Source of the DNA: an uncultured Actinomycetota bacterium
GTDB lineage: Bacteria; Actinomycetota; Humimicrobiia; Humimicrobiales; Humimicrobiaceae
DNA: 64,000 nucleotides
Direction of reading: 5' to 3'
Assembly (NCBI GenBank): GCA_964556165.1
Contig: CAZKVH010000002.1
Span: 32,616 to 96,615, forward strand
In this document: piece after piece, positions 10,383 through 24,358 of the stretch
Layout of the letters: each line of letters opens with the position of its first letter
Numbering within the stretch: the stretch's first letter is position 1
Translations under genes and position numbers: made by a program
The notes under the pieces: generated by a model
Databases searched by the model: none
What the model saw: the letters and a program-made list of their open reading frames with translations, nothing else
What the model was told of the DNA's origin: nothing

Positions 10383-11843
10383 TTAATTTCTTTTAATAAC
10401 ACCCCCACCTAAAAGTACGTCACCACGATAGAATACTGCGGACTGTCCCGGAGTTATTGCTTTCTGTGGTTTGTCAAAAAATATACTGGCCGTTTTTTTG
10501 CCTGTGATTCTTATTTCGGATGGAGATTCGCTACTTTTGTATCTTATTTTAACCATTGCTCTGAAGTTATTATCTGGCGGGGATTCGGCAATAAAATTTA
10601 ATTTTTTAACTTTAAGTGATTTTTGCATCAAATCTTTTTCCTCGCCTGCTATTATTATGTTTTTATCCGGTAATATTTCTTTTACATAATGAGGTTTATC
10701 GTGACTTATGCCAAGTCCTTTTCTCTGGCCAATTGTATAGAAGAAGTATCCTTTATGGGTCCCAATAATGTTGCCTTCAGTATCAAGTATCTGACCATGC
10801 CTGATATTTTTCAGTCTGGATTTAATGAATGAGTGATAGCTATCATCAGGTATAAAACAGATGTCCTGGCTTTCATTTTTTTCTTCGATGAAAGGGAAAT
10901 CTTTCATAGATTCTTTTTTTATATCTTTTTTTGAGAATTCCCCCAGAGGGGTTTTTATACGGGATAATTGTTTCTGATCGAGTTTCCATAACATATAACT
11001 CTGGTCTTTATTTTTATCGATGCCCTTCTTTAATTCATATAGTCCTGAATGTTCTGATTTTTCTATTCTGCAATAGTGTCCTGTAGCAAGGAAAGATGCG
11101 CCTAAAGTTTTAATTTTTTCAAGAAGAATCCCAAACTTTATATACTTATTGCATTCAACGCAGGGATTGGGAGTAAGTCCCTTTTTATAATCAAGGAAGA
11201 AAGGTTCGATTATTTTTTCTTTGAATGGCATGCTTAAATCAATTATTACGTGAGGAATATTTATTTTTAGTGCCACTTTTCTTGCGGTTTTAATATCTTT
11301 TTCGAAGTCTGATTTTTTATTCTTGTTAGTAAAATCCCCGGGAAGCAGTTTTAAAGTTACTCCTATTAATTCATAGCCCCTGTCCTTTAGGATTCTGGCA
11401 GCCATTGAACTGTCAATTCCTCCGCTCATGGCAATTGCAACTTTGTTATTGTTTTCTTTATAAATATTTGAGGTGAGAGGTTTTGAGATGTAATCTGTAA
11501 TAAGGTTGTTAAGAGCGTTTATAACAGTATCAAGTACATGTTTTTTTTCTGCAGGGAATTCTCCAAGGCAGTCCTCTATATCTTTTCCGGTTAAAAGTGT
11601 GCAGTCAAGTATATCTTTGTTTCTTACCATAGTAGTAATACAATCAGCTGCTGCAATTATGTAGCTGCAGCCTCCCGCCTTAAACTTTATATCATCTATT
11701 ATATTGCCGGATATTTTTGCAGTTAACTTTATATAAGTTAAATCACCTGCAGTAGATGGAATTCTGCATGTCCCCACGGCGTCGGAGGATATTATCTCCC
11801 CGGCGTTATAATTTTTTTCAGAATGTCTTTCGAAATTTTTCAT
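10383..11843 (-). CDS. mnmA: tRNA 2-thiouridine(34) synthase MnmA with an N-terminal NifU/IscU-like Fe-S scaffold domain (fusion)
   Basis: 486 aa. Roughly the first 120 aa resemble IscU/NifU (GTCRIPSTAGD ... KFKAGGCSYIIAAADC ... DC). The PP-loop SGGIDSS (AIAMSGGIDSSMAA) follows, then MnmA core motifs NPCVECN and DICFIPD. Confidence 0.85.
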   Translation of the reverse strand: MKNFERHSEKNYNAGEIISSDAVGTCRIPSTAGDLTYIKLTAKISGNIIDDIKFKAGGCSYIIAAADCITTMVRNKDILDCTLLTGKDIEDCLGEFPAEKKHVLDTVINALNNLITDYISKPLTSNIYKENNNKVAIAMSGGIDSSMAARILKDRGYELIGVTLKLLPGDFTNKNKKSDFEKDIKTARKVALKINIPHVIIDLSMPFKEKIIEPFFLDYKKGLTPNPCVECNKYIKFGILLEKIKTLGASFLATGHYCRIEKSEHSGLYELKKGIDKNKDQSYMLWKLDQKQLSRIKTPLGEFSKKDIKKESMKDFPFIEEKNESQDICFIPDDSYHSFIKSRLKNIRHGQILDTEGNIIGTHKGYFFYTIGQRKGLGISHDKPHYVKEILPDKNIIIAGEEKDLMQKSLKVKKLNFIAESPPDNNFRAMVKIRYKSSESPSEIRITGKKTASIFFDKPQKAITPGQSAVFYRGDVLLGGGVIKRN

Positions 11844-13401: not shown

Positions 13402-13440
13402 AAATAGAGTTTAAGCTTTAAAAAAGCTTAAACTCTATTT
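13402..13440. terminator. Perfect 17-bp inverted repeat (AAATAGAGTTTAAGCTT / AAGCTTAAACTCTATTT) with a 5-nt loop, followed by a T-rich run; likely terminator of the protease gene
   Basis: The palindrome is read directly from the sequence. It is AT-rich but long, and it is symmetric and so could act on either strand. Confidence 0.45.
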
Positions 13441-13539
13441 ATATAATTATTCTATTTTTTAATTGTTTTAGTGATTTATCTATGTTATTATATTTTTTCA
13501 AATTACTTTTTAAAGATTATTAAGGATACAAATAAAGAA

Positions 13540-13689
13540 ATGTTTCTGGAAAGATTAAAAAACATGTTAATTAGTAACTGTTTTAAAGGTCAGGGCGGCT
13601 GGGTTAATATATATAATACTGCTGCCATTTCTGTTTGTATTCTTTTAATTTTAGTCTGTCTATTACTTCTGGTCGGTATCCTATTCTAA
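13540..13689 (+). CDS. Candidate ilvBN leader peptide (49 aa) with a C-terminal Leu/Ile/Val-rich regulatory stretch
   Basis: The ATG at 13540 is preceded by AAGGA about 12 nt upstream. The peptide is MFLERLKNMLISNCFKGQGGWVNIYNTAAISVCILLILVCLLLLVGILF, and 16 of its last 20 residues are I/L/V. The stop at 13687-13689 overlaps the left arm of an 11-bp hairpin (13689-13699 pairing with 13728-13738) that is followed by CCTTTTATAA. ilvB starts about 225 nt downstream. The supplied 72-aa GTG-started version (13471) lacks an RBS. Confidence 0.35.
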   Translation: MFLERLKNMLISNCFKGQGGWVNIYNTAAISVCILLILVCLLLLVGILF

Positions 13690-13914
13690 TTTTCAGGATA
13701 GTTGTTACCAGAATATCAGAAGCAATAATCCTGAAAATCCTTTTATAAGTAACTCTTATTTCTGTTACCTTATAACTGGAATATTTTAAGAATATAGTTT
13801 TATGATAAAAGAGAAGATTGGCAAGAAAAAATATAAATAATTAATAAAAAAATGATATAATTATCAAAATTATTTGTTATAATGTTGTTACAAATACAGG
13901 GGAGTGATTTTATT

Positions 13915-15609
13915 ATGAACAAAATAAGCGGTGCACAGTTGATAGTTAAATGTTTAAAAAAAGAAGGCGTAGAGGTCATATTTGGCTATCCAGGCGGAGC
14001 TGTCATTCCACTGTACGATGCATTATATGAAAGTGATATCAGACATATACTGGTAAGACATGAGCAGGGAGCGGCACATGCAGCTGATGGTTATGCGAGG
14101 GCAACCGGAAAAACCGGTGTTTGTATGGCGACTTCGGGTCCAGGAGGAACCAACCTGGTAACAGGTATTGCTAATGCACAGATGGATTCGATACCTATAG
14201 TTGCTATAACAGGACAGGTAAGAACAAACCTCATAGGTACCGATGCTTTTCAGGAAGCAGATATAACAGGCATAACTGCTCCAATAACCAAGCAGAATTA
14301 CCTTGTAAAAGATATAAGAGATTTACCGCAGGTTATAAGGGAAGCGTTTTTAATAGCTTCTACAGGAAGGCCCGGTCCTGTTTTAGTTGACATACCTGTT
14401 GACATTACCACAGATTTAATAGACGAGAATTTTAAGATGGATATTAGATTACCTGGATACAAGCCAACTCTTAAAGGTAACCTCAAACAGATTAAAGAAG
14501 CAGTAAAAAAGATAGCAAAGAGCAAAAAACCTGTTATTTTCGCAGGGGGAGGAGTAATTCTGTCAGGGGCCAGTGATGAACTGAGGAAATTTGTCAGGAT
14601 CAGTGGAATTCCTGTAATAAACTCACTTATGGGTATGGGCTCTTTCCCGGAAACGGATCCCTTATCTCTAAGCATGGCCGGAATGCACGGGACAAAGTAT
14701 GCGAATCTGGCTTTTACAGAAACAGACCTTATTGTGGCAGTAGGAGTAAGATTTGATGACAGGATTACGGGCAAATTATCTGAGTTTGCTCCGGAGGCTG
14801 AAATAATTCATATAGATATTGACCCGGCTGAGATAGGTAAAAATATCAAGGCTATGATTCCTATTGTGGGGGATGCAAAGACGGTTCTTGCTGATTTAAA
14901 AAGTGAATATGAAAAATACATTGAGAAAAAAGGTAAGCCTGACAGGAGTGATTGGCTATCGAGAATTAAGAAATTAAAAGAGGATAATCCTTTGAAATAT
15001 GATAAGGACTCAGATGGAGTTAAACCCGCCTATATTATGGAGAAAATTTATGAGTTAACAAAAGGAGATGCAATTATATGTACAGAAGTAGGCCAGAACC
15101 AGATGTGGGCAGCGCAGTTTTATAAATTTACCCGGCCAAGAACATTAATAACTTCAGGTGGACTTGGCACCATGGGTTATGGTCTACCGGCATCAATTGG
15201 TGCAAAAACAGGAATGCCGGATAAAATAGTGATGGACATAGCAGGAGATGGGAGTATTCAGATGGTGTCACAGGAACTTGCTACTGCAGTTGCAAATAAA
15301 ATAAATATAAAAATAATGCTGCTAAATAACGGCTACCTTGGTATGGTAAGGCAGTGGCAGGAACTTTTCTGGAATAAGAGATATTCCAATACTTCTATCG
15401 ACGGTAGTGTTGACTTCGTGAAATTAATCGAAGCATATGGAGGAACTGGTTTGAGAGTTACTAAAAAGGATGAAATAGAAGGAGCTATTAAAAAAGCTCT
15501 GGAAATTGATACGGTAGTTCTAGTTGATTTCTGGATTGATAAAGAAGAAAATGTGTATCCAATGGTAGCTCCGGGTGCTTCAATTGACGATATGTTAGAC
15601 TGTATTTAG
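13915..15609 (+). CDS. ilvB: Acetolactate synthase large (catalytic, ThDP-dependent) subunit
   Basis: The ATG at 13915 follows a GGGGAG RBS. The N-terminus is SGAQLIVKCLKKEGVEVIFGYPGG. ThDP-binding region motifs (GDGSIQM..., NNGYLGMVRQWQ) are present, and an ilvN small subunit lies immediately downstream. Confidence 0.9.
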   Translation: MNKISGAQLIVKCLKKEGVEVIFGYPGGAVIPLYDALYESDIRHILVRHEQGAAHAADGYARATGKTGVCMATSGPGGTNLVTGIANAQMDSIPIVAITGQVRTNLIGTDAFQEADITGITAPITKQNYLVKDIRDLPQVIREAFLIASTGRPGPVLVDIPVDITTDLIDENFKMDIRLPGYKPTLKGNLKQIKEAVKKIAKSKKPVIFAGGGVILSGASDELRKFVRISGIPVINSLMGMGSFPETDPLSLSMAGMHGTKYANLAFTETDLIVAVGVRFDDRITGKLSEFAPEAEIIHIDIDPAEIGKNIKAMIPIVGDAKTVLADLKSEYEKYIEKKGKPDRSDWLSRIKKLKEDNPLKYDKDSDGVKPAYIMEKIYELTKGDAIICTEVGQNQMWAAQFYKFTRPRTLITSGGLGTMGYGLPASIGAKTGMPDKIVMDIAGDGSIQMVSQELATAVANKINIKIMLLNNGYLGMVRQWQELFWNKRYSNTSIDGSVDFVKLIEAYGGTGLRVTKKDEIEGAIKKALEIDTVVLVDFWIDKEENVYPMVAPGASIDDMLDCI

Positions 15610-15640: not shown

Positions 15641-16123
15641 ATGAGTCATATTATTTCAGTTTTAGTAGAGAATAAGTCAGGTGTTCTGGCAAAAATATCC
15701 GGCCTATTCAGCAGGAGAGGATTTAATATCGAAAGCCTTGCAGTTGGTCCTACAGAGGATGAAAAAATTTCAAGAATTACAATGGAAGTTGAGGCGGAAG
15801 AACATAGCCTTGAGCAAATCATAAAACAGCTATACAAACTGGTAAATGTAATAAAGATCAAGGAACTGGACCCTCGCAATATAGTAGAAAGAGAACTTGT
15901 GCTTATAAAAGTCAACGCAGATTCAAAAACCAGGCCCGAAATACTGGAGATAGTAAGCATTTTTCGAGCGAATATAGTGGATGTGGGCAAAAATACTTTA
16001 GTAATTGAAATTACGGGAAGTAAAAGCAAGGTTAAAGCTCTTGAAGATTTGCTGAAGCCTTTTGGTATACTTGAACTGGTTAGGACGGGTAAAATCGCAT
16101 GTACGAGAGGTAGTAAATATTAA
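15641..16123 (+). CDS. ilvN: Acetolactate synthase small (regulatory, ACT-domain) subunit
   Basis: 160 aa. The ACT domain reads ISVLVENKSGVLAKISGLFSRRGFNIESLAV, and the gene follows ilvB. Confidence 0.85.
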   Translation: MSHIISVLVENKSGVLAKISGLFSRRGFNIESLAVGPTEDEKISRITMEVEAEEHSLEQIIKQLYKLVNVIKIKELDPRNIVERELVLIKVNADSKTRPEILEIVSIFRANIVDVGKNTLVIEITGSKSKVKALEDLLKPFGILELVRTGKIACTRGSKY

Positions 16124-16317: not shown

Positions 16318-17484
16318 ATGATAAAGAAATATGTAATGACACCTGGTCCGACTCCAATTCCAGAGGATGTATTACTTGAGCATGCCAGACCACTTATGCA
16401 TCACAGGTCTCCTGAATTTTCAAAAATATTTATAGAAGTAACTGAAAAATTAAAGAAATTATTAAAAACAGAGAATGATGTTTTTATATTAACTTCTTCT
16501 GGTACAGGCGCTATGGAAGCTAGCGTGGTAAATTTCTTCTCTAAAGGGGATTTAGTTCTTGTTGTGAGCGCAGGTAATTTCGGAGAAAGATTCAAAAAAA
16601 TGGCAGCAAGGTTTGAACTGGAATTAATTTCTCTTGATTATGAATGGGGAGATGCAGCATCCCCGGGCGATATTAAAAAAGTTCTGGATGATAACCCCTC
16701 AATTAAAGGAGTTATGATTCAGTTAAGCGAGACGTCAACAGGGGCTTTAAATGATATGAAAACCATCGGGAGTATAGTAAAAGATTATCCTGCCATACTT
16801 GTCGTTGATGCGATAAGTGGCCTGGGGGCATCAGATTTAAGAACCGATGAATGGAACCTTGATGTCGTTATCGGAGGCTCTCAGAAAGCTTTGAGCGCAC
16901 CAACAGGAGTATCATTTATCAGCATAAGTGATAAAGCATGGAAGTTATGCGAAAATTCAAATATTCCTAAATTCTATTTTGACTTAAAGGCAGCAAAAAG
17001 TTATTTTCAGAAAACACCTCCTCAAACACCCTGGACCCCCGGCATATCGATAATTGTAGCAATGAATAAGGCTCTTGAAATATTACTTGAAGAAGGGCTG
17101 GAGAAAGTCTTTGAGAGACATAGAATACTGGCTCTTGCAACACAGAAGGCGGCTGAAAAACTGGGTCTGGAGCCTCTGGTTAAGGATAAGAATAAAAGGG
17201 GATTTTCGGTAACTTCTATTGTTGTTCCTGAAGGAATAAGCGCTAAAGATATTACTAAAATTATGAGGGAAAAGTATGGCGTTACTATTGCCGGAGGACA
17301 GGGAAAGCTTGCTGGAAAGATAATAAGAATAGGACATCTTGGGTATTTTGGAATGTTTGATGTTATTATTTCTATTAGTGCTCTGGAAATGGCACTAAAG
17401 GAACTTGGTTTTGAATTCGAGGTTGGTTCCGGAATTACAGAGGCACAAAGGACATTTGTGGAAAATAATTATCTTGATTATTAA
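16318..17484 (+). CDS. Class V aminotransferase (AGXT/SerC-like), probably phosphoserine aminotransferase given the adjacent serA
   Basis: 388 aa PLP-dependent fold (TPGPTPIPEDVL ... GGSQKALSAPTGVSFISIS). It lies directly upstream of D-3-phosphoglycerate dehydrogenase. Confidence 0.6.
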   Translation: MIKKYVMTPGPTPIPEDVLLEHARPLMHHRSPEFSKIFIEVTEKLKKLLKTENDVFILTSSGTGAMEASVVNFFSKGDLVLVVSAGNFGERFKKMAARFELELISLDYEWGDAASPGDIKKVLDDNPSIKGVMIQLSETSTGALNDMKTIGSIVKDYPAILVVDAISGLGASDLRTDEWNLDVVIGGSQKALSAPTGVSFISISDKAWKLCENSNIPKFYFDLKAAKSYFQKTPPQTPWTPGISIIVAMNKALEILLEEGLEKVFERHRILALATQKAAEKLGLEPLVKDKNKRGFSVTSIVVPEGISAKDITKIMREKYGVTIAGGQGKLAGKIIRIGHLGYFGMFDVIISISALEMALKELGFEFEVGSGITEAQRTFVENNYLDY

Positions 17485-17520
17485 AACGCAAAAAAGAAAT
17501 TAATATGTGGGTGGGGTAAT

Positions 17521-19107
17521 ATGATTAAAAAAGTATTAATTACTGACGGTCTTTCTGATGAATCCAAAAAAAAGCTCAGGGGGTATTTTAAAGTCACGGA
17601 AAAAAAGGGTCTTGCACCGGAAAAGCTTAAAGAAGAGATTAAAGGTGTAAGCGCAATAATTATAAGAAGTGCGACAAAGCTTTCAGCTGATATAATCGAG
17701 GCTTCGGATAAACTGGAAGTGATAGGTAGAGCAGGTATAGGTGTTGACAATATAGACGTTTCAGCAGCTACAAAAAAGGGTATTTTAGTGATTAATGCAC
17801 CTGCAAGTAATGCAGTTACTGTGGCAGAACATACTATTGCTTTGTTGCTTTCTACTGTAAGGAAAATTCCTGAAGCAAATTTTTCTCTAAAAAGCGGAAA
17901 GTGGGAGAAATCAAAATTTGGGGGCGTCGAGCTCGAGGGTAAAACACTGGGAATAATAGGTTTCGGGCAAATAGGAGGGCTTGTCGCCAAAAAAGCAATA
18001 TGTCTTGGAATAAAAGTCATAGCATATGACCCATTTGTGTCCGAGGATAGATTCAGACAGCTTGAAATAAGAAAAGCAAATACACTGGATGATATTTACA
18101 AAGAAGCTGACTTTATATCCATACACCTTCCAAAGAATAAGGATACTATAGGAATGTTTAACAGGGAAGAGTTCTATAAGATGAAAAAAGGAACAATAAT
18201 ATTGAATGTTGCAAGAGGAGGCATTATTGTCGAAAAAGATATTGCAGAAGCCCTGGAGGATGGTCAGCTTGGAGGCGCAGCACTTGATGTTTACGAAAAA
18301 GAACCATGCACTGATTCACCTGTTTTTAAATTAGAAAGTGTTGTATGTACCCCTCATCTTGGTGCTTCGACAGAAGAGGCACAGGATAGAGCAGGGACTA
18401 TAATTGCAGACCAGGTTATAGATATTCTTAATGGAAAAACTGCTACTTTTCCTGTAAACATGCCTGCTATAAGGCCAGAGCTTATAAACGTTCTTTCACC
18501 TTTCTTTGAGTTATGCGAAGATCTGGGGATTCTATTCGTGAATCTATTTGAAGGCAATATGGATTGTCTGAAGATTGGATATTCCGGAAAAGTATCCGAA
18601 TACGATGTAAGAATTTTGACTTCTACTATACTGGTAAAAATACTTGAGAAATACTCGGCAGAAAATGTCAATCTGGTAAATGTAGACCTTCTTGCAAAAG
18701 GAATGGGTCTGGAAGTGAAAGAAGTAAAAGGCGGAGATTCAAAAGATTATGTGAATTTGATTACCCTTGAAGGTGGGAGTAAAGATAACATACTTTCTAT
18801 TTCGGGAACTACCACAGGTAAAAAAGATACCCCGAGATTTATAGCTATTGATAAATTTGAAATAGATATGGTTCCTTCCAGTCATATGGCGTTTATAAAA
18901 TATAAGGATATTCCGGGGCAGATAGGAAAGATTGGAACCGCTTTTGGCAAACTGGGTGTGAATATAGCATCCATGCATGTGGGAAGAAAAAAGTTAAGCG
19001 GGGATGCTATTATGGTATTAAATCTTGATAATGAGGTGACACCCGAGATGCTTGAAGAGTTTAAGAAGCAAGCGGGTTTCAAGAACATAAAGATAGTCAA
19101 TCTTTAA
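17521..19107 (+). CDS. serA: D-3-phosphoglycerate dehydrogenase with a C-terminal ACT regulatory domain
   Basis: 528 aa. The 2-hydroxyacid dehydrogenase NAD-binding motif GIIGFGQIGG is present. The catalytic region is ...NVARGGII...TPHLGASTEEAQ, followed by a C-terminal ASB plus ACT segment. Confidence 0.85.
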   Translation: MIKKVLITDGLSDESKKKLRGYFKVTEKKGLAPEKLKEEIKGVSAIIIRSATKLSADIIEASDKLEVIGRAGIGVDNIDVSAATKKGILVINAPASNAVTVAEHTIALLLSTVRKIPEANFSLKSGKWEKSKFGGVELEGKTLGIIGFGQIGGLVAKKAICLGIKVIAYDPFVSEDRFRQLEIRKANTLDDIYKEADFISIHLPKNKDTIGMFNREEFYKMKKGTIILNVARGGIIVEKDIAEALEDGQLGGAALDVYEKEPCTDSPVFKLESVVCTPHLGASTEEAQDRAGTIIADQVIDILNGKTATFPVNMPAIRPELINVLSPFFELCEDLGILFVNLFEGNMDCLKIGYSGKVSEYDVRILTSTILVKILEKYSAENVNLVNVDLLAKGMGLEVKEVKGGDSKDYVNLITLEGGSKDNILSISGTTTGKKDTPRFIAIDKFEIDMVPSSHMAFIKYKDIPGQIGKIGTAFGKLGVNIASMHVGRKKLSGDAIMVLNLDNEVTPEMLEEFKKQAGFKNIKIVNL

Positions 19108-19224: not shown

Positions 19225-20778
19225 ATGGTAGTGGAAAATGTAAAAAATAAGGTCTTCGTTTTTGATACAACTCTGCGTGACGGGGAACAGTCTCCGGGGA
19301 TTCATCTTAATACCAGGGAAAAATTAGAGATAGCGCAGCAGCTTGCTAAATTAAATGTAGATATTATAGAAGCGGGTTTTCCAATTTCATCAAGAAGTGA
19401 TTTTATTTCTGTGAAAGAAATATCGGCTAAAATTAGAGACAGAAGAATTGCAGCTCTGGCAAGAGCCAATTTTAAGGATATAGATGCTGCAGGCGAGGCA
19501 CTAAAAGGTGCCACCTGGCCGGTGATACACACATTTATCTCATCATCAGATATTCATCTTAAATACCAGCTCAAAAAAAGCAGGGAAGAAGTACTTGAGC
19601 TTGCATCTGAAGCAGTGAAGAGAAGCCTTAAATATACCGATATGGTTGAGTTCTCGGCTATGGATGCAACAAGAAGTGATCGCATATTTCTCTGCAAGCT
19701 TTTTGAGGCCGCTATTAAGAGTGGAGCTAAAGTTATAAATATCCCGGATACAGTTGGATATATTCTCCCGGACGAATTTGGAGAAATGATAGACTATATT
19801 TTCGAAAATACTGCAGGAATCGAAAATGTGACAGTAAGTGTCCATTGCCATGATGACCTGGGCCTTGCAGTTGCTAACTCTCTTGCTGCAATTAAGCATG
19901 GCGCGAGACAGGTAGAATGTGCGGTGAATGGTATCGGTGAAAGGGCAGGCAATGCGTCTCTTGAAGAAGTTGTAATGATTATTGATACCCGGAAAAAAGA
20001 TCTGGGTCTGCATACTGATATAAATATTGGCGAGATTATAAGAACAAGCGGTATTGTAAAATCATTAACGGGCTACATTATACCGCCAAATAAAGCGATA
20101 GTAGGTAAGAATGCTTTTAGCCACGAAGCGGGGATACATCAGGATGGTATGCTAAAAGATAGGTCTACTTATGAAATAATAAAGCCGGAAGATATTGGCT
20201 TAAAGTCATCAGAGTTAATACTTGGCAAGCATTCGGGAAGACATGCATTTTCAGAGAGGCTTAAAGACCTGGGCATACAACTGGACGATAAAAATCTTGA
20301 GAAGGCTTTTGAGAAGTTTAAGAACCTTGCAGAAAAAAAGGGAGCACTTAATGACCAGGATATAAAAGCAATAGTTGAGAATGAAATAAGAGAGGTCAAC
20401 GAATATTTATTACTTAAATATTACAGAGTTCAAAGTGGCTCGGATGTTAAAGCAAGCTCTTCTGTAGGAATAGAAATAAATGGCAAACTTTATGAGGGAA
20501 CATCAGCAGGAGATGGGCAGGTTGATGCTTCATTTAAAGCTATCGATAAGATAACTGGCATGAAAATAAAATTAGTTGAATATAATATAGAAGCTGTTTC
20601 TGGAGGGAGAGACGCTCTGGGCTCGGTTAAAATAGTTGTCAGCAGTAACGGTATAGAAGTTATGGGTAGCGGTATAAGCACGGATATTGTTGAGGCGAGC
20701 ATAAAGGCATATGTAAGTGCCATGAACAGAATTATGGAAACAAAAGGCAGCCTTGGTTCTCAGGATTCAGCCTCGTAA
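19225..20778 (+). CDS. leuA: 2-isopropylmalate synthase
   Basis: 517 aa. The N-terminal motif is VFDTTLRDGEQSPG. A HxH metal site (VHCHDDLGLAVANSLAA) and a C-terminal LeuA dimerisation/regulatory domain are present. Confidence 0.85.
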   Translation: MVVENVKNKVFVFDTTLRDGEQSPGIHLNTREKLEIAQQLAKLNVDIIEAGFPISSRSDFISVKEISAKIRDRRIAALARANFKDIDAAGEALKGATWPVIHTFISSSDIHLKYQLKKSREEVLELASEAVKRSLKYTDMVEFSAMDATRSDRIFLCKLFEAAIKSGAKVINIPDTVGYILPDEFGEMIDYIFENTAGIENVTVSVHCHDDLGLAVANSLAAIKHGARQVECAVNGIGERAGNASLEEVVMIIDTRKKDLGLHTDINIGEIIRTSGIVKSLTGYIIPPNKAIVGKNAFSHEAGIHQDGMLKDRSTYEIIKPEDIGLKSSELILGKHSGRHAFSERLKDLGIQLDDKNLEKAFEKFKNLAEKKGALNDQDIKAIVENEIREVNEYLLLKYYRVQSGSDVKASSSVGIEINGKLYEGTSAGDGQVDASFKAIDKITGMKIKLVEYNIEAVSGGRDALGSVKIVVSSNGIEVMGSGISTDIVEASIKAYVSAMNRIMETKGSLGSQDSAS

Positions 20779-20823
20779 TTTTAAATGGAGATTGGTAAAT
20801 GATTTTGGAAGGAATTATTTAAA

Positions 20824-22101
20824 ATGAGCAGTAAAAACAAAGCGCAGACAATGGCGCAAAAAATACTTGCGTACCATTGTGAAAGAGATTATGTTTCGGA
20901 AGGCGAGATAATAGAAGTGGACGTGGATGTGGTGCTCGGAAATGATATAACCATGCCTATTGCTATTAAGGAATTTGAAAAAATAGGAGTGGATGAGATA
21001 TTTGATAGAGAAAAGGTTGTTATAGTGCCCGACCACTTTACTCCAAATAAAGATATAAAATCTGCCCAGCAGTGTAAATTTATAAGAGAGTTTGCACGAA
21101 AGCATAATATAAAGAATTATTTCGAAGTTGGTAGGCTGGGTATTGAGCACGCGCTTCTACCTGAATTGGGTCTGGTGCTGCCGGGTGATCTTGTAATAGG
21201 GGCTGATTCTCACACATGTACTTATGGAGCTCTTGGAGCGGCATCGACAGGGGTCGGGAGCACAGACGTGGCTGTAGCAATGGCTACAGGTAAAGCATGG
21301 CTTATGGTTCCCGGCACTATAAAGTTTGTATATACTGGAAAATTAAAAAAGTGGATAACAGGCAAGGATCTGATTTTATATACTATTGGTTTGATAGGAG
21401 TTGACGGTGCTCTTTACAGGTCTATGGAATTCAGCGGACCATCAATAGACGAAATCTCTATGGATTCCAGATTTACTATGGCTAATATGGCAATAGAAGC
21501 TGGAGGAAAGTTTGGATTATTTGGAGTTGATAATAAGACAATAGAGTTTGTAGAGCCAAGAGCCAAAAGGGAATATAAATCTTTTTCCAGTGATTCTGAT
21601 GCTGAATATGAAAGAGTATATAATATAGATTGCTCTAATATAGATTTACAGGTAGCAGCTCCTTATCTTCCATCAAATGCTGTAAATGCAAGAGATTTAA
21701 AGGATGTTAAAGTTGACCAGGTTGTGATAGGTTCCTGTACAAATGGGAGGATTGAGGATTTTAGAATTGCAGCGGAAATTTTAAAAAACAAGAAAGTAAA
21801 TGACAACCTGAGAACTATAATAATTCCCGCAACTCAGAATATATATCTCGAATCTGTTAAGAGGGGTTATGTTGAAATTTTTATTGAATCCGGCTGTGCA
21901 GTAAGCACACCTACCTGCGGTCCATGCCTTGGAGGCCATATGGGGGTGCTGGCAGAAGGTGAGGTAGCAGTATCAACCACTAATAGAAACTTCGTTGGAA
22001 GGATGGGGCATCCTGAAAGTAAGGTCTACCTGAGCGGGCCTGCTGTAGCAGCTGCCACAGCAGTAGCAGGAAGGATAGCAATACCTGAGGAGGTTATATA
22101 A
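20824..22101 (+). CDS. leuC: 3-isopropylmalate dehydratase large subunit (short LeuC/aconitase-family type)
   Basis: 425 aa. The three aconitase-family Cys ligands are present (GSCTNGR ... CGPCLG), and leuD lies immediately downstream. Confidence 0.85.
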
Positions 22102-22601
22102 TGATTATAAGAGATAGTGTTATAAAATATGGCAATAATATAGATACTGATGTTATTATACCGGCAAGATACTTAAACACAGCAGATGAAAGAGAGCTGG
22201 CTTCCCACTGTTTCGAGGACCTGGATAGAGGTTTTCCGGAAAAGGTAAAGACAAGAAAAATAATAGTTGCAGGGAGTAATTTTGGTTGCGGATCATCCAG
22301 GGAGCATGCTCCGATATCAATAAAGGCAAGCGGAATAAAAGCTGTAATAGCCGATTCGTTTGCGAGGATTTTCTTCAGGAACGCTATAAATATAGGGCTT
22401 CCGGTTATTACAGGTAGGGAGGCAAGCATGTTTATAGAGGATGGAGATGAGCTTGAAATTGATTTAAGCATGGGAATAATCAGGGATATCACAAAGGATA
22501 AATCCTTTGAGGTAAAGCCACTCCCTGATTTTGTACAGGGGATAATAAAAAGTGGTGGTTATATAAATTTTACCAGGGAAAGTATAAAAAAAGGCAATTA
22601 A
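22101..22601 (+). CDS. leuD: 3-isopropylmalate dehydratase small subunit
   Basis: 166 aa LeuD/aconitase swivel domain (GSNFGCGSSREHAP). It is start/stop coupled to leuC. Confidence 0.85.
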   Translation: MIIRDSVIKYGNNIDTDVIIPARYLNTADERELASHCFEDLDRGFPEKVKTRKIIVAGSNFGCGSSREHAPISIKASGIKAVIADSFARIFFRNAINIGLPVITGREASMFIEDGDELEIDLSMGIIRDITKDKSFEVKPLPDFVQGIIKSGGYINFTRESIKKGN

Positions 22602-22762
22602 AGAAATAAGTAATAAATAAATTTTGAAAAGGTTGTAATTAATAGTTTTATAGAGTTCTTCAGGCGGAGGAAAATTTTTAAAAAAACGAGTAGAATTTTA
22701 ATAAATTTTAAATATGCCGGTTATTTTAAGTATTATAAAATGAGTAAATTAGGGTGGATAAA

Positions 22763-24358
22763 ATGAAAAGCGAATTAAGGGATAATGATAGAATATATGT
22801 GCTGGATACTACTTTAAGGGACGGTTCCCAGAGAGCTGATATATCTTTTTCGGTTAATGATAAATTACAGCTTATAGAAAGATTTGATGATGTCGGAATA
22901 GATTATATAGAAGTTGGGTTTCCTTACTCCAATCCCAAAGAAATGGAATTGTTTGAAAAACTAAAAAGCAGAAAATTCCAGTATTCAAAGATAGTAGCAT
23001 TTGGAAGGACAAGACATAAAGACACCAAAGTGGAGGATGATAATAACATAAAACAATTAGTTCAGTCAGGGACAGATGCTGTATGTGTTGTGGGAAAATC
23101 ATCTATAATTCATATTGAGAAAGTAATAGGAACCAATATTGAAAATAATCTTAGCATGATTTTTGACTCCATCGAATATTTAAAAGGGTATTTTCCGGAA
23201 ATTATTTTTGATGCGGAACATTTTTTTGATGGCTTTAAAGAGAACTCAAAATATGCAATTGAAACATTAAAAGTGGCAGCCGAAGCAGGAGCAGACTATT
23301 TAGCACTCTGTGACACAAATGGAGGAACTCTACCAAATGAGGTTATAGAAATAATTGATAAAGTTAGAAAGACAGTCAGGGCAGACATAGGAGTACATTT
23401 TCATAATGATAATGGCTGTGGAGTGGCAAATACCATAATAGCTGTTCAAAAAGGAGCGAAGATGATTCATGGGACGATAAATGGTTACGGGGAAAGATGC
23501 GGCAATGCAGACCTTTGCCAGATTATTCCGAACCTTGAGATAAAGTTAAATAAACGTTGTCTTAAGGAAGGGAGCCTGAAACATTTGACCAGTCTTTCAA
23601 GATTCGTAAGTGAGACCGCGAATCAGATTGCAAATCCGAGCCAGCCATTTGTTGGACGTAATGCCTTTACTCATAAAGGAGGCATGCATGTGGATGGTGT
23701 AAGCAAGCTTTCAAAGGCATTTGAACATATGGATCCGGCTGTTATAGGGAATACAAGAAAAATTCTCATTTCTGAACTTTCCGGAAAAAAATCTATCATT
23801 ATTAAAGCAAAGGAATTTGGAATTAACCTTGAAGATGATATGGAAAAAGTGAGTGAAATATTAAATAAGATTCAGAATATGGAGCATAAGGGTTACCAGT
23901 TTGAAGCGGCAGACGGTAGTTTCGAACTAATTGTCAGGGAAGCTGCGGGGATAAAAAAGAAATTTTTTAAACTGGAAAGTTTCAGGGTTTTGAATGAGAA
24001 AAAGGAAGATGGCAGTATGATGTCTGAAGCAACTGTGAAGGTTTATATAAAGGGTAACAGGATAATTGAAACTGCCGAGGGAAATGGACCGGTTAACGCT
24101 CTTGACAGAGCTTTAAGAAAAGCGATTGGGAGTTGTTATCCTGTACTAAAAAAGATAACCCTTACAGACTTTAAGGTTAGAGTTTTAAATGAAAAAAAGG
24201 GTACAGGAGCAGTAGTAAGAGTTTTAATCGAATCGACAGATGGCGCAGGAAGCTGGGGGACTATAGGAGTATCTGAAAATATAATAGAAGCAAGCTGGCA
24301 GGCATTAGAAGATAGTGTTATTTTTGGGCTAATGCATGCCGAAGGGGACGAAGAATAG
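22763..24358 (+). CDS. cimA: LeuA-family paralog, probably (R)-citramalate synthase
   Basis: About 531 aa. The motif YVLDTTLRDGSQ is present, with the HxH metal site VHFHNDNG and a C-terminal LeuA-dimer domain. It is a second LeuA-family gene placed directly after leuCD. The ATG at 22763 (RBS AGGGTGG) is preferred over the in-frame GTG at 22754. Confidence 0.55.
   Translation: MKSELRDNDRIYVLDTTLRDGSQRADISFSVNDKLQLIERFDDVGIDYIEVGFPYSNPKEMELFEKLKSRKFQYSKIVAFGRTRHKDTKVEDDNNIKQLVQSGTDAVCVVGKSSIIHIEKVIGTNIENNLSMIFDSIEYLKGYFPEIIFDAEHFFDGFKENSKYAIETLKVAAEAGADYLALCDTNGGTLPNEVIEIIDKVRKTVRADIGVHFHNDNGCGVANTIIAVQKGAKMIHGTINGYGERCGNADLCQIIPNLEIKLNKRCLKEGSLKHLTSLSRFVSETANQIANPSQPFVGRNAFTHKGGMHVDGVSKLSKAFEHMDPAVIGNTRKILISELSGKKSIIIKAKEFGINLEDDMEKVSEILNKIQNMEHKGYQFEAADGSFELIVREAAGIKKKFFKLESFRVLNEKKEDGSMMSEATVKVYIKGNRIIETAEGNGPVNALDRALRKAIGSCYPVLKKITLTDFKVRVLNEKKGTGAVVRVLIESTDGAGSWGTIGVSENIIEASWQALEDSVIFGLMHAEGDEE

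Follow-up and report, generated by a model that had tools for sequence, protein, structure and literature searches.

On the plus strand of the 64-kb stretch of DNA analysed here (the window), ilvBN is preceded by a 49-codon open reading frame (ORF) which, together with the hairpins around its 3' end, probably constitutes a ribosome-mediated leader-peptide transcription attenuator sensing charged Ile-, Leu- and Val-tRNA. We infer from sequence comparison that the leader is translated, that transcription terminates at the hairpin which follows it (T), that a competing hairpin (AT) forms depending on the position of the ribosome, and that the system responds to isoleucine, leucine and valine (ILV). 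The leader runs from ATG 13540 to TAA 13687-13689 and would encode MFLERLKNMLISNCFKGQGGWVNIYNTAAISVCILLILVCLLLLVGILF, with Ile, Leu or Val specified by 15 of its 20 final sense codons. Much of the original prediction for this locus was borne out, as the 49-codon leader lies before ilvBN, its stop codon overlaps the left arm of an 11-bp hairpin with a 28-nt loop and CCUUUUAUAA behind it, and ilvB, recognised like ilvN by its Pfam domains, starts 225 nt past the leader stop. The interpretation as an attenuator gained support as well, from the finding of an ILV-rich micro-ORF in 16 sequences and from compensatory changes in the hairpin. The number of ILV codons, given as 16 of the last 20, had to be corrected, and the ribosome-binding site that had been called plausible is weak: it consists of an AAGGA (13522-13526) 13 nt 5' of the ATG, which overlaps the mutated start codon of the ancestral leader. 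The positions of all features are collected in Table 1.

Table 1. Features of the leader region and the adjoining genes in the window
Feature	Position	Strand	Basis
Promoter P1: -35 TTGTTT 13463-13468, 17-nt spacer, extended -10 TGT-TATTAT 13483-13491	13463-13491	+	alignment
Ancestral leader start codon, ATG in relatives, AAG in the window	13522-13524	+	alignments
Leader ORF, 49 codons and TAA	13540-13689	+	open frame kept in 16 sequences
Regulatory codon run, 15 Ile/Leu/Val among codons 30-48	13627-13683	+	codon alignment
Proposed antiterminator AT, stop codon in the loop	13661-13727	+	predicted fold
Hairpin T: arms 13689-13699/13728-13738, inner stem 13701-13706/13721-13726, U-tract CCUUUUAUAA 13739-13748	13689-13748	+	folding, alignment
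Conserved spacer after T, motif TATAACTGGAATATTTT at ~13771-13790	13749-13804	+	alignment
Decayed ilvD Shine-Dalgarno sequence and TTG start (AAAGAGAAGATTGGCAAG; relatives have AGGGAGGAAAATTGAGAAG)	13805-13826	+	alignment
Block P2: A-rich tract, TGATATAAT 13853-13861, TGTTATAATGTTGTTAC 13875-13891, palindrome TTGTTACAA 13885-13893	13836-13893	+	conserved pattern
ilvB: Shine-Dalgarno GGGGAG 13899-13904, ATG 13915	13899-15609	+	Pfam TPP_enzyme_N/M/C
ilvN	15641-16123	+	Pfam ALS_ss_C/ACT

Conservation and genomic linkage of the leader

The element was compared in 16 distinct DNA versions, drawn from Humimicrobiia-like Actinomycetota metagenome-assembled genomes (MAGs) and metagenome contigs with 70-91% identical ilvB. 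It was found by BLAST or by ORF scanning in loci L001, L002, L004, L006, L007, L083 and L086, and via the called peptides P0121-P0135 in L090-L101. A BLAST search with the spacer located it about 1.8 kb above ilvB in L001, L002 and L004 (ilvB 82% identical), before an ilvD that is itself the immediate upstream neighbour of ilvB, and a scan for ORFs with an ILV-rich tail yielded diverged versions before ilvD in L006 and L007 (ilvB 71% and 70% identical, respectively). Searching with a profile of seven peptide versions brought up called 'hypothetical' proteins, 42-85 aa long and falling into 15 clusters, and the eight clusters that were looked up all lie 85-160 nt upstream of ilvD-ilvB. The longer gene calls among P0121-P0135 begin at upstream TTG, GTG or ATG codons inside the promoter region and are probably over-extended. 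A metagenome scan with the peptide alignment gave 212 pattern matches, two of which were confirmed by tblastn, both belonging to the L083 lineage. As for the window leader itself, an exact-sequence look-up found no called gene with its product in the collection searched, the gene lists of the JGI metagenome contigs that match the window exactly do not contain the ORF, and neither a single-sequence homology search with the peptide nor Pfam gave a match. No second copy of the element is present in the 64-kb window.

Across the 16 sequences, the leader frame is free of stops in all 640 codons examined (the 40 before the stop in each), compared to 57 and 67 stops in the other two frames, and the ORF is therefore conserved beyond what chance would give. 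An in-frame ATG lies 40-58 codons before the stop in every sequence, most leaders having 49-50 codons, and the differences in length keep the frame (indels of one and five codons). Positions held by Ile, Leu or Val stay within these three residues (rarely T, F, S or P), while the remaining positions of the tail vary freely (C, G, R, W, S, Y and, in P0126, N), and the second codon position is the least variable in the alignment. The Leu codon at -6 occurs in four synonymous forms (CTG, CTA, TTA and TTG). Such a pattern would be expected if the ILV codons themselves were under selection, and it would be compatible with a transmembrane (TM) helix too. Codons -5 to -1 (GTC GGT ATT CTA TCC) have the same nucleotides in 12 of the 13 core sequences, the window being the one that differs (ATC, TTC); synonymous sites frozen in this manner fit a strand that must pair.

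In the relatives the leader starts with ATG AAT/GAT ACA AAT..., giving peptides that begin MNT(N/R)K..., and most versions lack a Shine-Dalgarno sequence. The window start has been replaced, the new ATG lying nine codons downstream of the ancestral one (MNTN...). Since the window lost the ancestral ATG, and since the N-termini of L006 and L007 are unrelated to those of the core group, the N-terminus of the leader is, on this comparison, dispensable, although partly conserved within the core group. Between the window and L083 (ilvB 91% identical), positions 13420-13780 are 77-93% identical, with 87-90% for 13420-13539, as compared to 48-70% for ordinary intergenic DNA and about 85% for coding DNA.

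In all 16 sequences the element stands on the same strand as the ilv genes and precedes ilvD-ilvB, or ilvB alone in the lineages without ilvD, and at least five different genes precede it, encoding among others a trypsin-like protease, a glycosyltransferase, an IS1595 transposase and a recombinase. ilvD (PF00920) follows the leader in 13 relatives. Three lineages are without ilvD at this place, namely the window, L083 and L086/L087, and the element was retained in lineages that lost the gene. Because 13805-13826 of the window can still be aligned to the beginning of ilvD in the relatives, both to its Shine-Dalgarno sequence and to its TTG codon, we conclude that ilvD was deleted and the leader kept; a Pfam scan of 20 window ORFs, with most of 33-63 kb outside the scan, revealed no ilvD. 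Judged from these alignments, the ancestral position of the element is upstream of ilvD-ilvB. The earlier statement that it lies directly upstream of ilvBN thus stands as regards strand and order, but a conserved block (P2, 13853-13891) intervenes and the ancestral target was ilvD-ilvB. The original prediction had also compared the locus with genomes of low-GC Gram-positive type. Uncultured 'Actinomycetota' MAGs, some of them named Candidatus Hydromicrobium (class Candidatus Humimicrobiia), encode proteins with 82% identity to the window ilvB, which points to a low-GC (35%) lineage of Actinomycetota and not to one of Firmicutes type; the placement in or near Humimicrobiia follows from the names of the best matches.

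Competing hairpins and a model of attenuation

The left arm of T, AUUUUCAGGAU, begins with the last A of the leader stop and pairs with AUCCUGAAAAU on the right, and a 6-bp inner stem lies within the loop. The hairpin folds with -16.6 kcal/mol (z = -4.45 compared to dinucleotide shuffles), a value equalled by none of 200 shuffles. The leader stop abuts the left arm in all 16 sequences (0-5 nt), and the hairpin behind the stop, with (A/U)UCUUUUAU(A/C)AG following it, was seen in all versions. RNAalifold on the MAFFT alignment recovered the 6-bp core of T alone; as the loop of T could not be aligned in this way, per-sequence folds and a loop-excised alignment were used. In the latter, 89.5% of the cells are paired, compared to 33-54% when the 3' strand was slid. 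Three pairs have undergone compensatory change, with C-G in place of U-A in four sequences and A-U in place of U-A at two positions, the latter in two sequences each (L004/L096 and L007/L100). Of 500 shuffles, 2 attained the covariation score. In the U-tract, 13 of the 16 sequences share CTTTTAT, TTTAT being invariant, and several relatives fold the loop shut, which makes the stem long and nearly uninterrupted. These features suggest that T is an intrinsic terminator between the leader ORF and the first structural gene. A CodY box was also considered for the T arms (AATTTTCAG...CTGAAAAT; the Firmicutes consensus is AATTTTCWGAAAATT) and rejected, the halves being 30 nt apart, the relatives deviating from it (TTTCAGGA, TTACAGGAT) and the lineage being actinobacterial.

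In AT, the last codons of the ORF (13661-13664, 13666-13678 and 13681-13687) are predicted to pair with 13695-13701, 13706-13709, 13711-13712, 13716-13722 and 13724-13727. With -16.8 kcal/mol (z = -2.33), AT is near-isoenergetic with T, and the two structures are mutually exclusive, having AGGAU 13695-13699 and the inner stem in common. A pairing of TATCC with GGATA had been noticed in the original prediction, which left open what alternative pairings would give a correct response to branched-chain amino acids (BCAAs). This pairing exists, in a fold of CUAUUCU 13681-13687 with AGGAUAG 13695-13701, and it forms the core of a hairpin which competes with T for AGGAU and would have the correct logic. 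Across the homologues, the codons GUC GGU AUU CUA UCC (in the window CUUCUGGUCGGUAUCCUAUUCU) pair with AGGAUA(G) and the 5' part of the T loop. Most of the 16 sequences are predicted to form an equivalent hairpin, which is weak in L091 and L101, and in 10 of the 16 it at least matches T in stability. The AT core is 80% paired, compared to 32-62% when slid. The outer part of AT differs between lineages and is complementary in a lineage-specific manner: pairing between the ORF end and the T loop surpasses that with shuffled loops in window/L083 (p ~0.04), L099 (0.046), L006 (0.002) and L007/L100 (0.006), so that the extended pairing beats shuffles in 6 of 16 sequences, representing four lineages. 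We regard AT as a likely but unproven antiterminator.

In the model that we propose, transcription would initiate at the extended -10 promoter P1, and the leader would be translated. When BCAAs are plentiful, the ribosome would pass the 15 ILV codons and reach the stop, unwinding or covering 13661-13687, which would then be unable to pair with AGGAUAG... (13695-13727). Upon release of the ribosome, T (13689-13738 with CCUUUUAU) would form and most transcripts would stop near 13745. When ILV-tRNAs are scarce, the ribosome would instead stall at the first hungry codons; codons 30-38 (13627-13653), located 5' of the antiterminator strand, are likely the effective sensor. The 3' end of the ORF would thereby stay free, AT could form before the right arm of T has been made, and RNA polymerase would read on. 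If the ribosome stalled at 13678-13683, on the last ILV codons, it could also prevent T from forming directly, since the left arm would then be covered. The target of this control would be ilvD-ilvB-ilvN... in the ancestor and most relatives, and in the window lineage, with ilvD deleted, read-through would enter ilvBN on top of any contribution from P2.

Alternative readings, promoters and neighbouring genes

A number of observations weigh against such an attenuator. The AT core (UAUCCU/AGGAUA) is nearly invariant and shows no covariation, a change of GGAU to GGAC that strengthens T breaks one AT pair in 4-6 sequences, and the extended AT pairing is no better than that with shuffled loops in 10 of 16 sequences. 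T, for its part, has a large loop (25-48 nt across the sequences) and a short U-tract, with four U in a row and six U within 8 nt. The left arm of T would be covered by a ribosome that lingers at the stop, and termination under replete conditions would hence need prompt release. The leader is about three times as long as a typical ilv leader, its N-terminal half is partly conserved at the peptide level in the core group (MNTxKxSFxDKLKNE), and its tail resembles a TM helix; the ILV richness was dropped as an argument against such a helix, since one genuine TM helix in the window likewise has 15 ILV in 20 residues. The position of P2 between T and ilvB means that ilvB may not depend on read-through. 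Finally, for Streptomyces coelicolor, a mutation of the ilvB leader codons is described, as cited in PMC1262725, as being without effect on regulation, and the architecture alone is therefore no proof.

One alternative is an attenuator lacking an antiterminator, where a ribosome that is stalled on the last ILV codons or coupled to the polymerase covers the left arm of T by steric means, and its release lets T form. The overlap of stop and left arm in all sequences agrees with this, as do the missing covariation of the AT core, its weakening in the GGAC-type sequences, and the actinobacterial ilvB leader ORFs which overlap terminators and for which no antiterminator was reported (PMC1262725). 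However, most ILV codons are situated 20-60 nt upstream of T, and a stall there would free T, which is the wrong response unless an antiterminator exists. The lineage-specific complementarity between ORF end and T loop, above chance in L006, L007/L100, window/L083 and L099, and the near invariance of the last five codons at synonymous sites also speak for AT, and purely steric control is considered unlikely.

P1 recurs as TTGTTT-17-TA..AT, with TG at -15/-14, in every homologue and always in the corresponding position, even in the distant L006 and L007, and directly follows the terminator of the preceding gene in all versions. A consensus promoter scan missed it (the -35 matches 3/6), and it would place the start of transcription near 13498-13500. 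In the window, the terminator before P1 (13399-13443) is that of the protease gene. It consists of a perfect AU-rich hairpin of 20 bp with a T-run and represents the unregulated type here, with a small loop, a long stem and a longer U-run than the attenuator hairpin. Beyond T, the spacer 13749-13804 is conserved in the relatives up to the ribosome-binding site of ilvD (consensus TATAATTGAAATATTT), and its motif could be a -10 box or an RNA element. A TATAAT between T and ilvD is partly conserved, being missing or altered in L091, L004, L095 and L096.

As a second alternative, the ORF might be read as an independent gene for a small tail-anchored membrane protein of 49-50 aa, with P1 and T as its own promoter and terminator and the ilv genes transcribed from promoters past T. 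The tail is a plausible TM helix, as rich in ILV as the real one in the window, the N-terminal half is somewhat conserved, gene callers predict the ORF in many contigs, and a hairpin with a U-tract right after the stop resembles the terminator of a small gene; the TATAAT-like motif between T and ilvD in many relatives, and P2 before ilvB, could supply the further promoters. This reading is nonetheless rather improbable. It leaves unaccounted for the strict same-strand linkage to ilvD/ilvB in 16/16 sequences, despite at least five different upstream neighbours and even after the deletion of ilvD, and the tolerance of charged or polar residues (R, N, P, S) halfway along the 'helix', at sites other than the ILV positions, which are themselves kept. 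Loss of the ancestral ATG and nine residues in the window, and the unrelated N-termini of L006/L007, show this end of the peptide to be dispensable; the last five codons are near-frozen synonymously and complementary to the left arm of T, no Pfam family matches, and the TATAAT after T is not kept in the four loci named above.

P2 raises a third possibility. Its TGATATAAT is a perfect extended -10 (TGnTATAAT). The block adjoins the ilvB ribosome-binding site, and it separates ilvB from T in the window and from ilvD in the relatives. Exact copies of the pattern TGATATAAT-N10-30-TGTTATAAWGTTGTTAC occur in 20 loci, each time immediately ahead of ilvB, and L007 with its 70% identical ilvB is among them; elsewhere than in the window it stands at L001 2936-2978, L007 2938-2976, L090 4547-4589 and in 16 further loci. 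The gap from TGATATAAT to the invariant 17-mer TGTTATAAWGTTGTTAC, which contains the palindrome TTGTTACAA, is 13-19 nt, and the block is more conserved than the leader. The 64-kb window has a single TTGTWACAA. In L005 (~1640-1700), GTTACAA is present as three or four tandem repeats directly upstream of the conserved pre-ilvB block, which suggests that GTTACAA is a protein-binding half-site. P2 is a probable internal promoter and operator for ilvB, or else an RNA site, at which some regulator would act, and the window ilvB would thus probably have two inputs, leader read-through and P2.

Taken further, the window leader could be a relic of the deletion of ilvD, with ilvBN expressed and regulated from P2 (13853-13891) alone. 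The perfect -10 with an A-tract upstream and the invariant 17-mer downstream, its presence in 20 loci with stronger conservation than the leader, and the loss of the ancestral leader start codon in the window are in line with this. On the other hand, the window and L083, which are both without ilvD, share 77-93% identity over leader, AT and T, compared to 48-70% over neutral intergenic DNA. The frame is still open and a replacement ATG is present, and the third lineage without ilvD (L086/L087) also keeps T. A relic is regarded as improbable.

It is very improbable, in our judgement, that the leader serves a dual function, as a tail-anchored membrane micro-protein, or as a nascent chain engaging the membrane-targeting machinery, which also sets attenuation. 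If it did, its length, hydrophobic tail and N-terminus (MNTxKxSFxDKLKNE) would be selected for the second role, for example through a coupling of ilv expression to membrane or transport status. That a chance ORF in T-rich DNA happens to lie beside a chance hairpin can be practically dismissed, for although a lone ILV-rich ORF is unremarkable in surroundings of 28% GC, with 49-codon NTN-rich frames not rare there (about one per such spacer over six frames, as a rough estimate from base composition), the 16 sequences with 0 stops as compared to 57 and 67, the fixed place beside ilv genes and the covarying hairpin speak against it. A type I toxin-antitoxin system, which a hydrophobic ORF with its own promoter would fit, was rejected in view of the single copy in the 64-kb window and the fixed ilv synteny in 16/16 sequences.

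As to the neighbouring genes, a class-V aminotransferase and a serA-like phosphoglycerate dehydrogenase with an ACT domain lie between ilvN and leuA (16318-19107), followed by two HMGL-like/LeuA-dimer synthases (19225-20778 and 22754-24358), perhaps leuA and citramalate synthase (region 19225-24358). The gene order of the cluster from ilvN to leuA is the same in the relatives L081-L087. On the minus strand, a single ORF (10383-11843) fuses a NifU-like N-terminal domain to a complete MnmA-type tRNA 2-thiouridine synthase, the latter comprising the tRNA_Me_trans HUP, PRC-barrel and C-terminal domains.

Comparison with known regulators

The Rfam 15 families tested comprised the T-box, the Leu, His, Thr and Trp leaders, the ppGpp riboswitch and, if included in that release, the ilvB-associated motifs. 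At the gathering threshold, neither a T-box nor any other family was found in the leader region of the window, and at E <= 10 the segment 13300-14000 gave no relevant match, the hits being limited to miRNA and Listeria sRNAs at chance level. No match was obtained in 14 homologous loci at the gathering score either. On these null results a T-box or another known riboswitch or leader was rejected, in agreement with the original prediction, which had seen no T-box. The T-box leaders of Firmicutes ilv-leu operons share with the present element the sensing of BCAA-tRNA charging and the control of a leader terminator. They differ in that no T-box match, specifier or T-box sequence is present here, the proposed sensor being a translated ORF.

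With the E. coli attenuators of the ilvBN (ivbL), ilvGMEDA (ilvL) and trp/his/leu/thr/pheA class, the element has in common a leader rich in codons for the end products, and an ORF end that would here act as the 5' strand of an antiterminator in competition with an intrinsic terminator, before the first biosynthetic gene. E. coli leader peptides of this class have 14-32 codons. Here, the leaders have 49-50 codons with 15 regulatory codons over 20 positions, most members are without a Shine-Dalgarno sequence, the loop of the terminator is large and partly structured and its U-tract short, and the stop overlaps the left arm of the terminator, in contrast to a placement before region 2. No similarity to the E. 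coli leaders was seen in sequence or by covariance model. Attenuation of ilvB by an upstream ORF (uORF) is described as established in E. coli (PMC10272879 refs 15, 17) and in Corynebacterium.

Indeed, ilvB leader peptides are already known in Actinomycetota (PMC1262725, PMC10272879). The uORF of ilvB-II/ilvBNC in Corynebacterium has in common with the present element the phylum, a BCAA-rich uORF with terminator and antiterminator (both predicted in the present case), and a single copy at a fixed place. The ilvB-II uORF has 15-17 codons (extremes 10-24) with ~4 ILV positions and lies ~150 nt before ilvB (Narunsky et al. 2023, PMC10272879), spanning the P1 stem of that motif, whose P2 is the terminator (PMC10272879). 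The leader of C. glutamicum ilvB is reported to be translated without a ribosome-binding site (Morbach 2000, as cited in PMC10272879), a trait that most of the present leaders would share. The present leaders differ from ilvB-II in having 49-50 codons (extremes 40-58) and 15 ILV codons, in that ilvD is usually the first gene, and in being AT-rich and unrelated in sequence. By these comparisons, the element would work like ilvB-II but is not a member of it. Candidate ilvB leader ORFs, rich in consecutive I/V/L codons and overlapping a terminator hairpin with a U-run behind it, were further described for Mycobacterium, Streptomyces and Corynebacterium (Seliverstov et al. 2005, PMC1262725); unlike the present ones, these are GC-rich and short, and no antiterminator was reported for them (PMC1262725). 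The ilvB-OMG and Leptospira ilvB motifs have been re-read as uORF attenuators with BCAA/Thr-rich uORFs of variable length (PMC10272879), and were set apart from the present element by the Rfam family search, not by a comparison of alignments.

A leader of this general kind was also noticed in another phylum. In L032, an uncultured Spirochaetia MAG, positions 176-291 hold a TTGACA-17-TATATT promoter, an AAGGAGG Shine-Dalgarno sequence and a 37-codon ORF, MAKNYRNSFKNTSATVTSVLTLPVVLLLTGLLVVVLA, with 14 ILV in its last 20 codons, upstream of a methyltransferase-like gene, ilvD and ilvB, which may be an analogous BCAA/Thr leader.

The element adds a well-supported leader-peptide attenuator family to a barely studied class of uncultured Actinomycetota (Humimicrobiia-like) and extends the view of uORF attenuation as the common control of ilvB/ilvD across phyla. 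It is unusual in that the leader is 49-50 codons long, ~15 of which would act as sensors, that translation would do without a Shine-Dalgarno sequence, and that the stop is fused to the terminator arm, and it offers a natural experiment in which the regulated first gene, ilvD, was deleted while the attenuator was kept before ilvB. For annotation, it serves as a warning that the 'hypothetical 49-50 aa proteins' of these MAGs are probably regulatory leaders. While it does not open a new kind of mechanism, and matches no known system by covariance model or sequence, the element most likely represents a sequence family not catalogued so far, belonging to a well-known kind of regulator.

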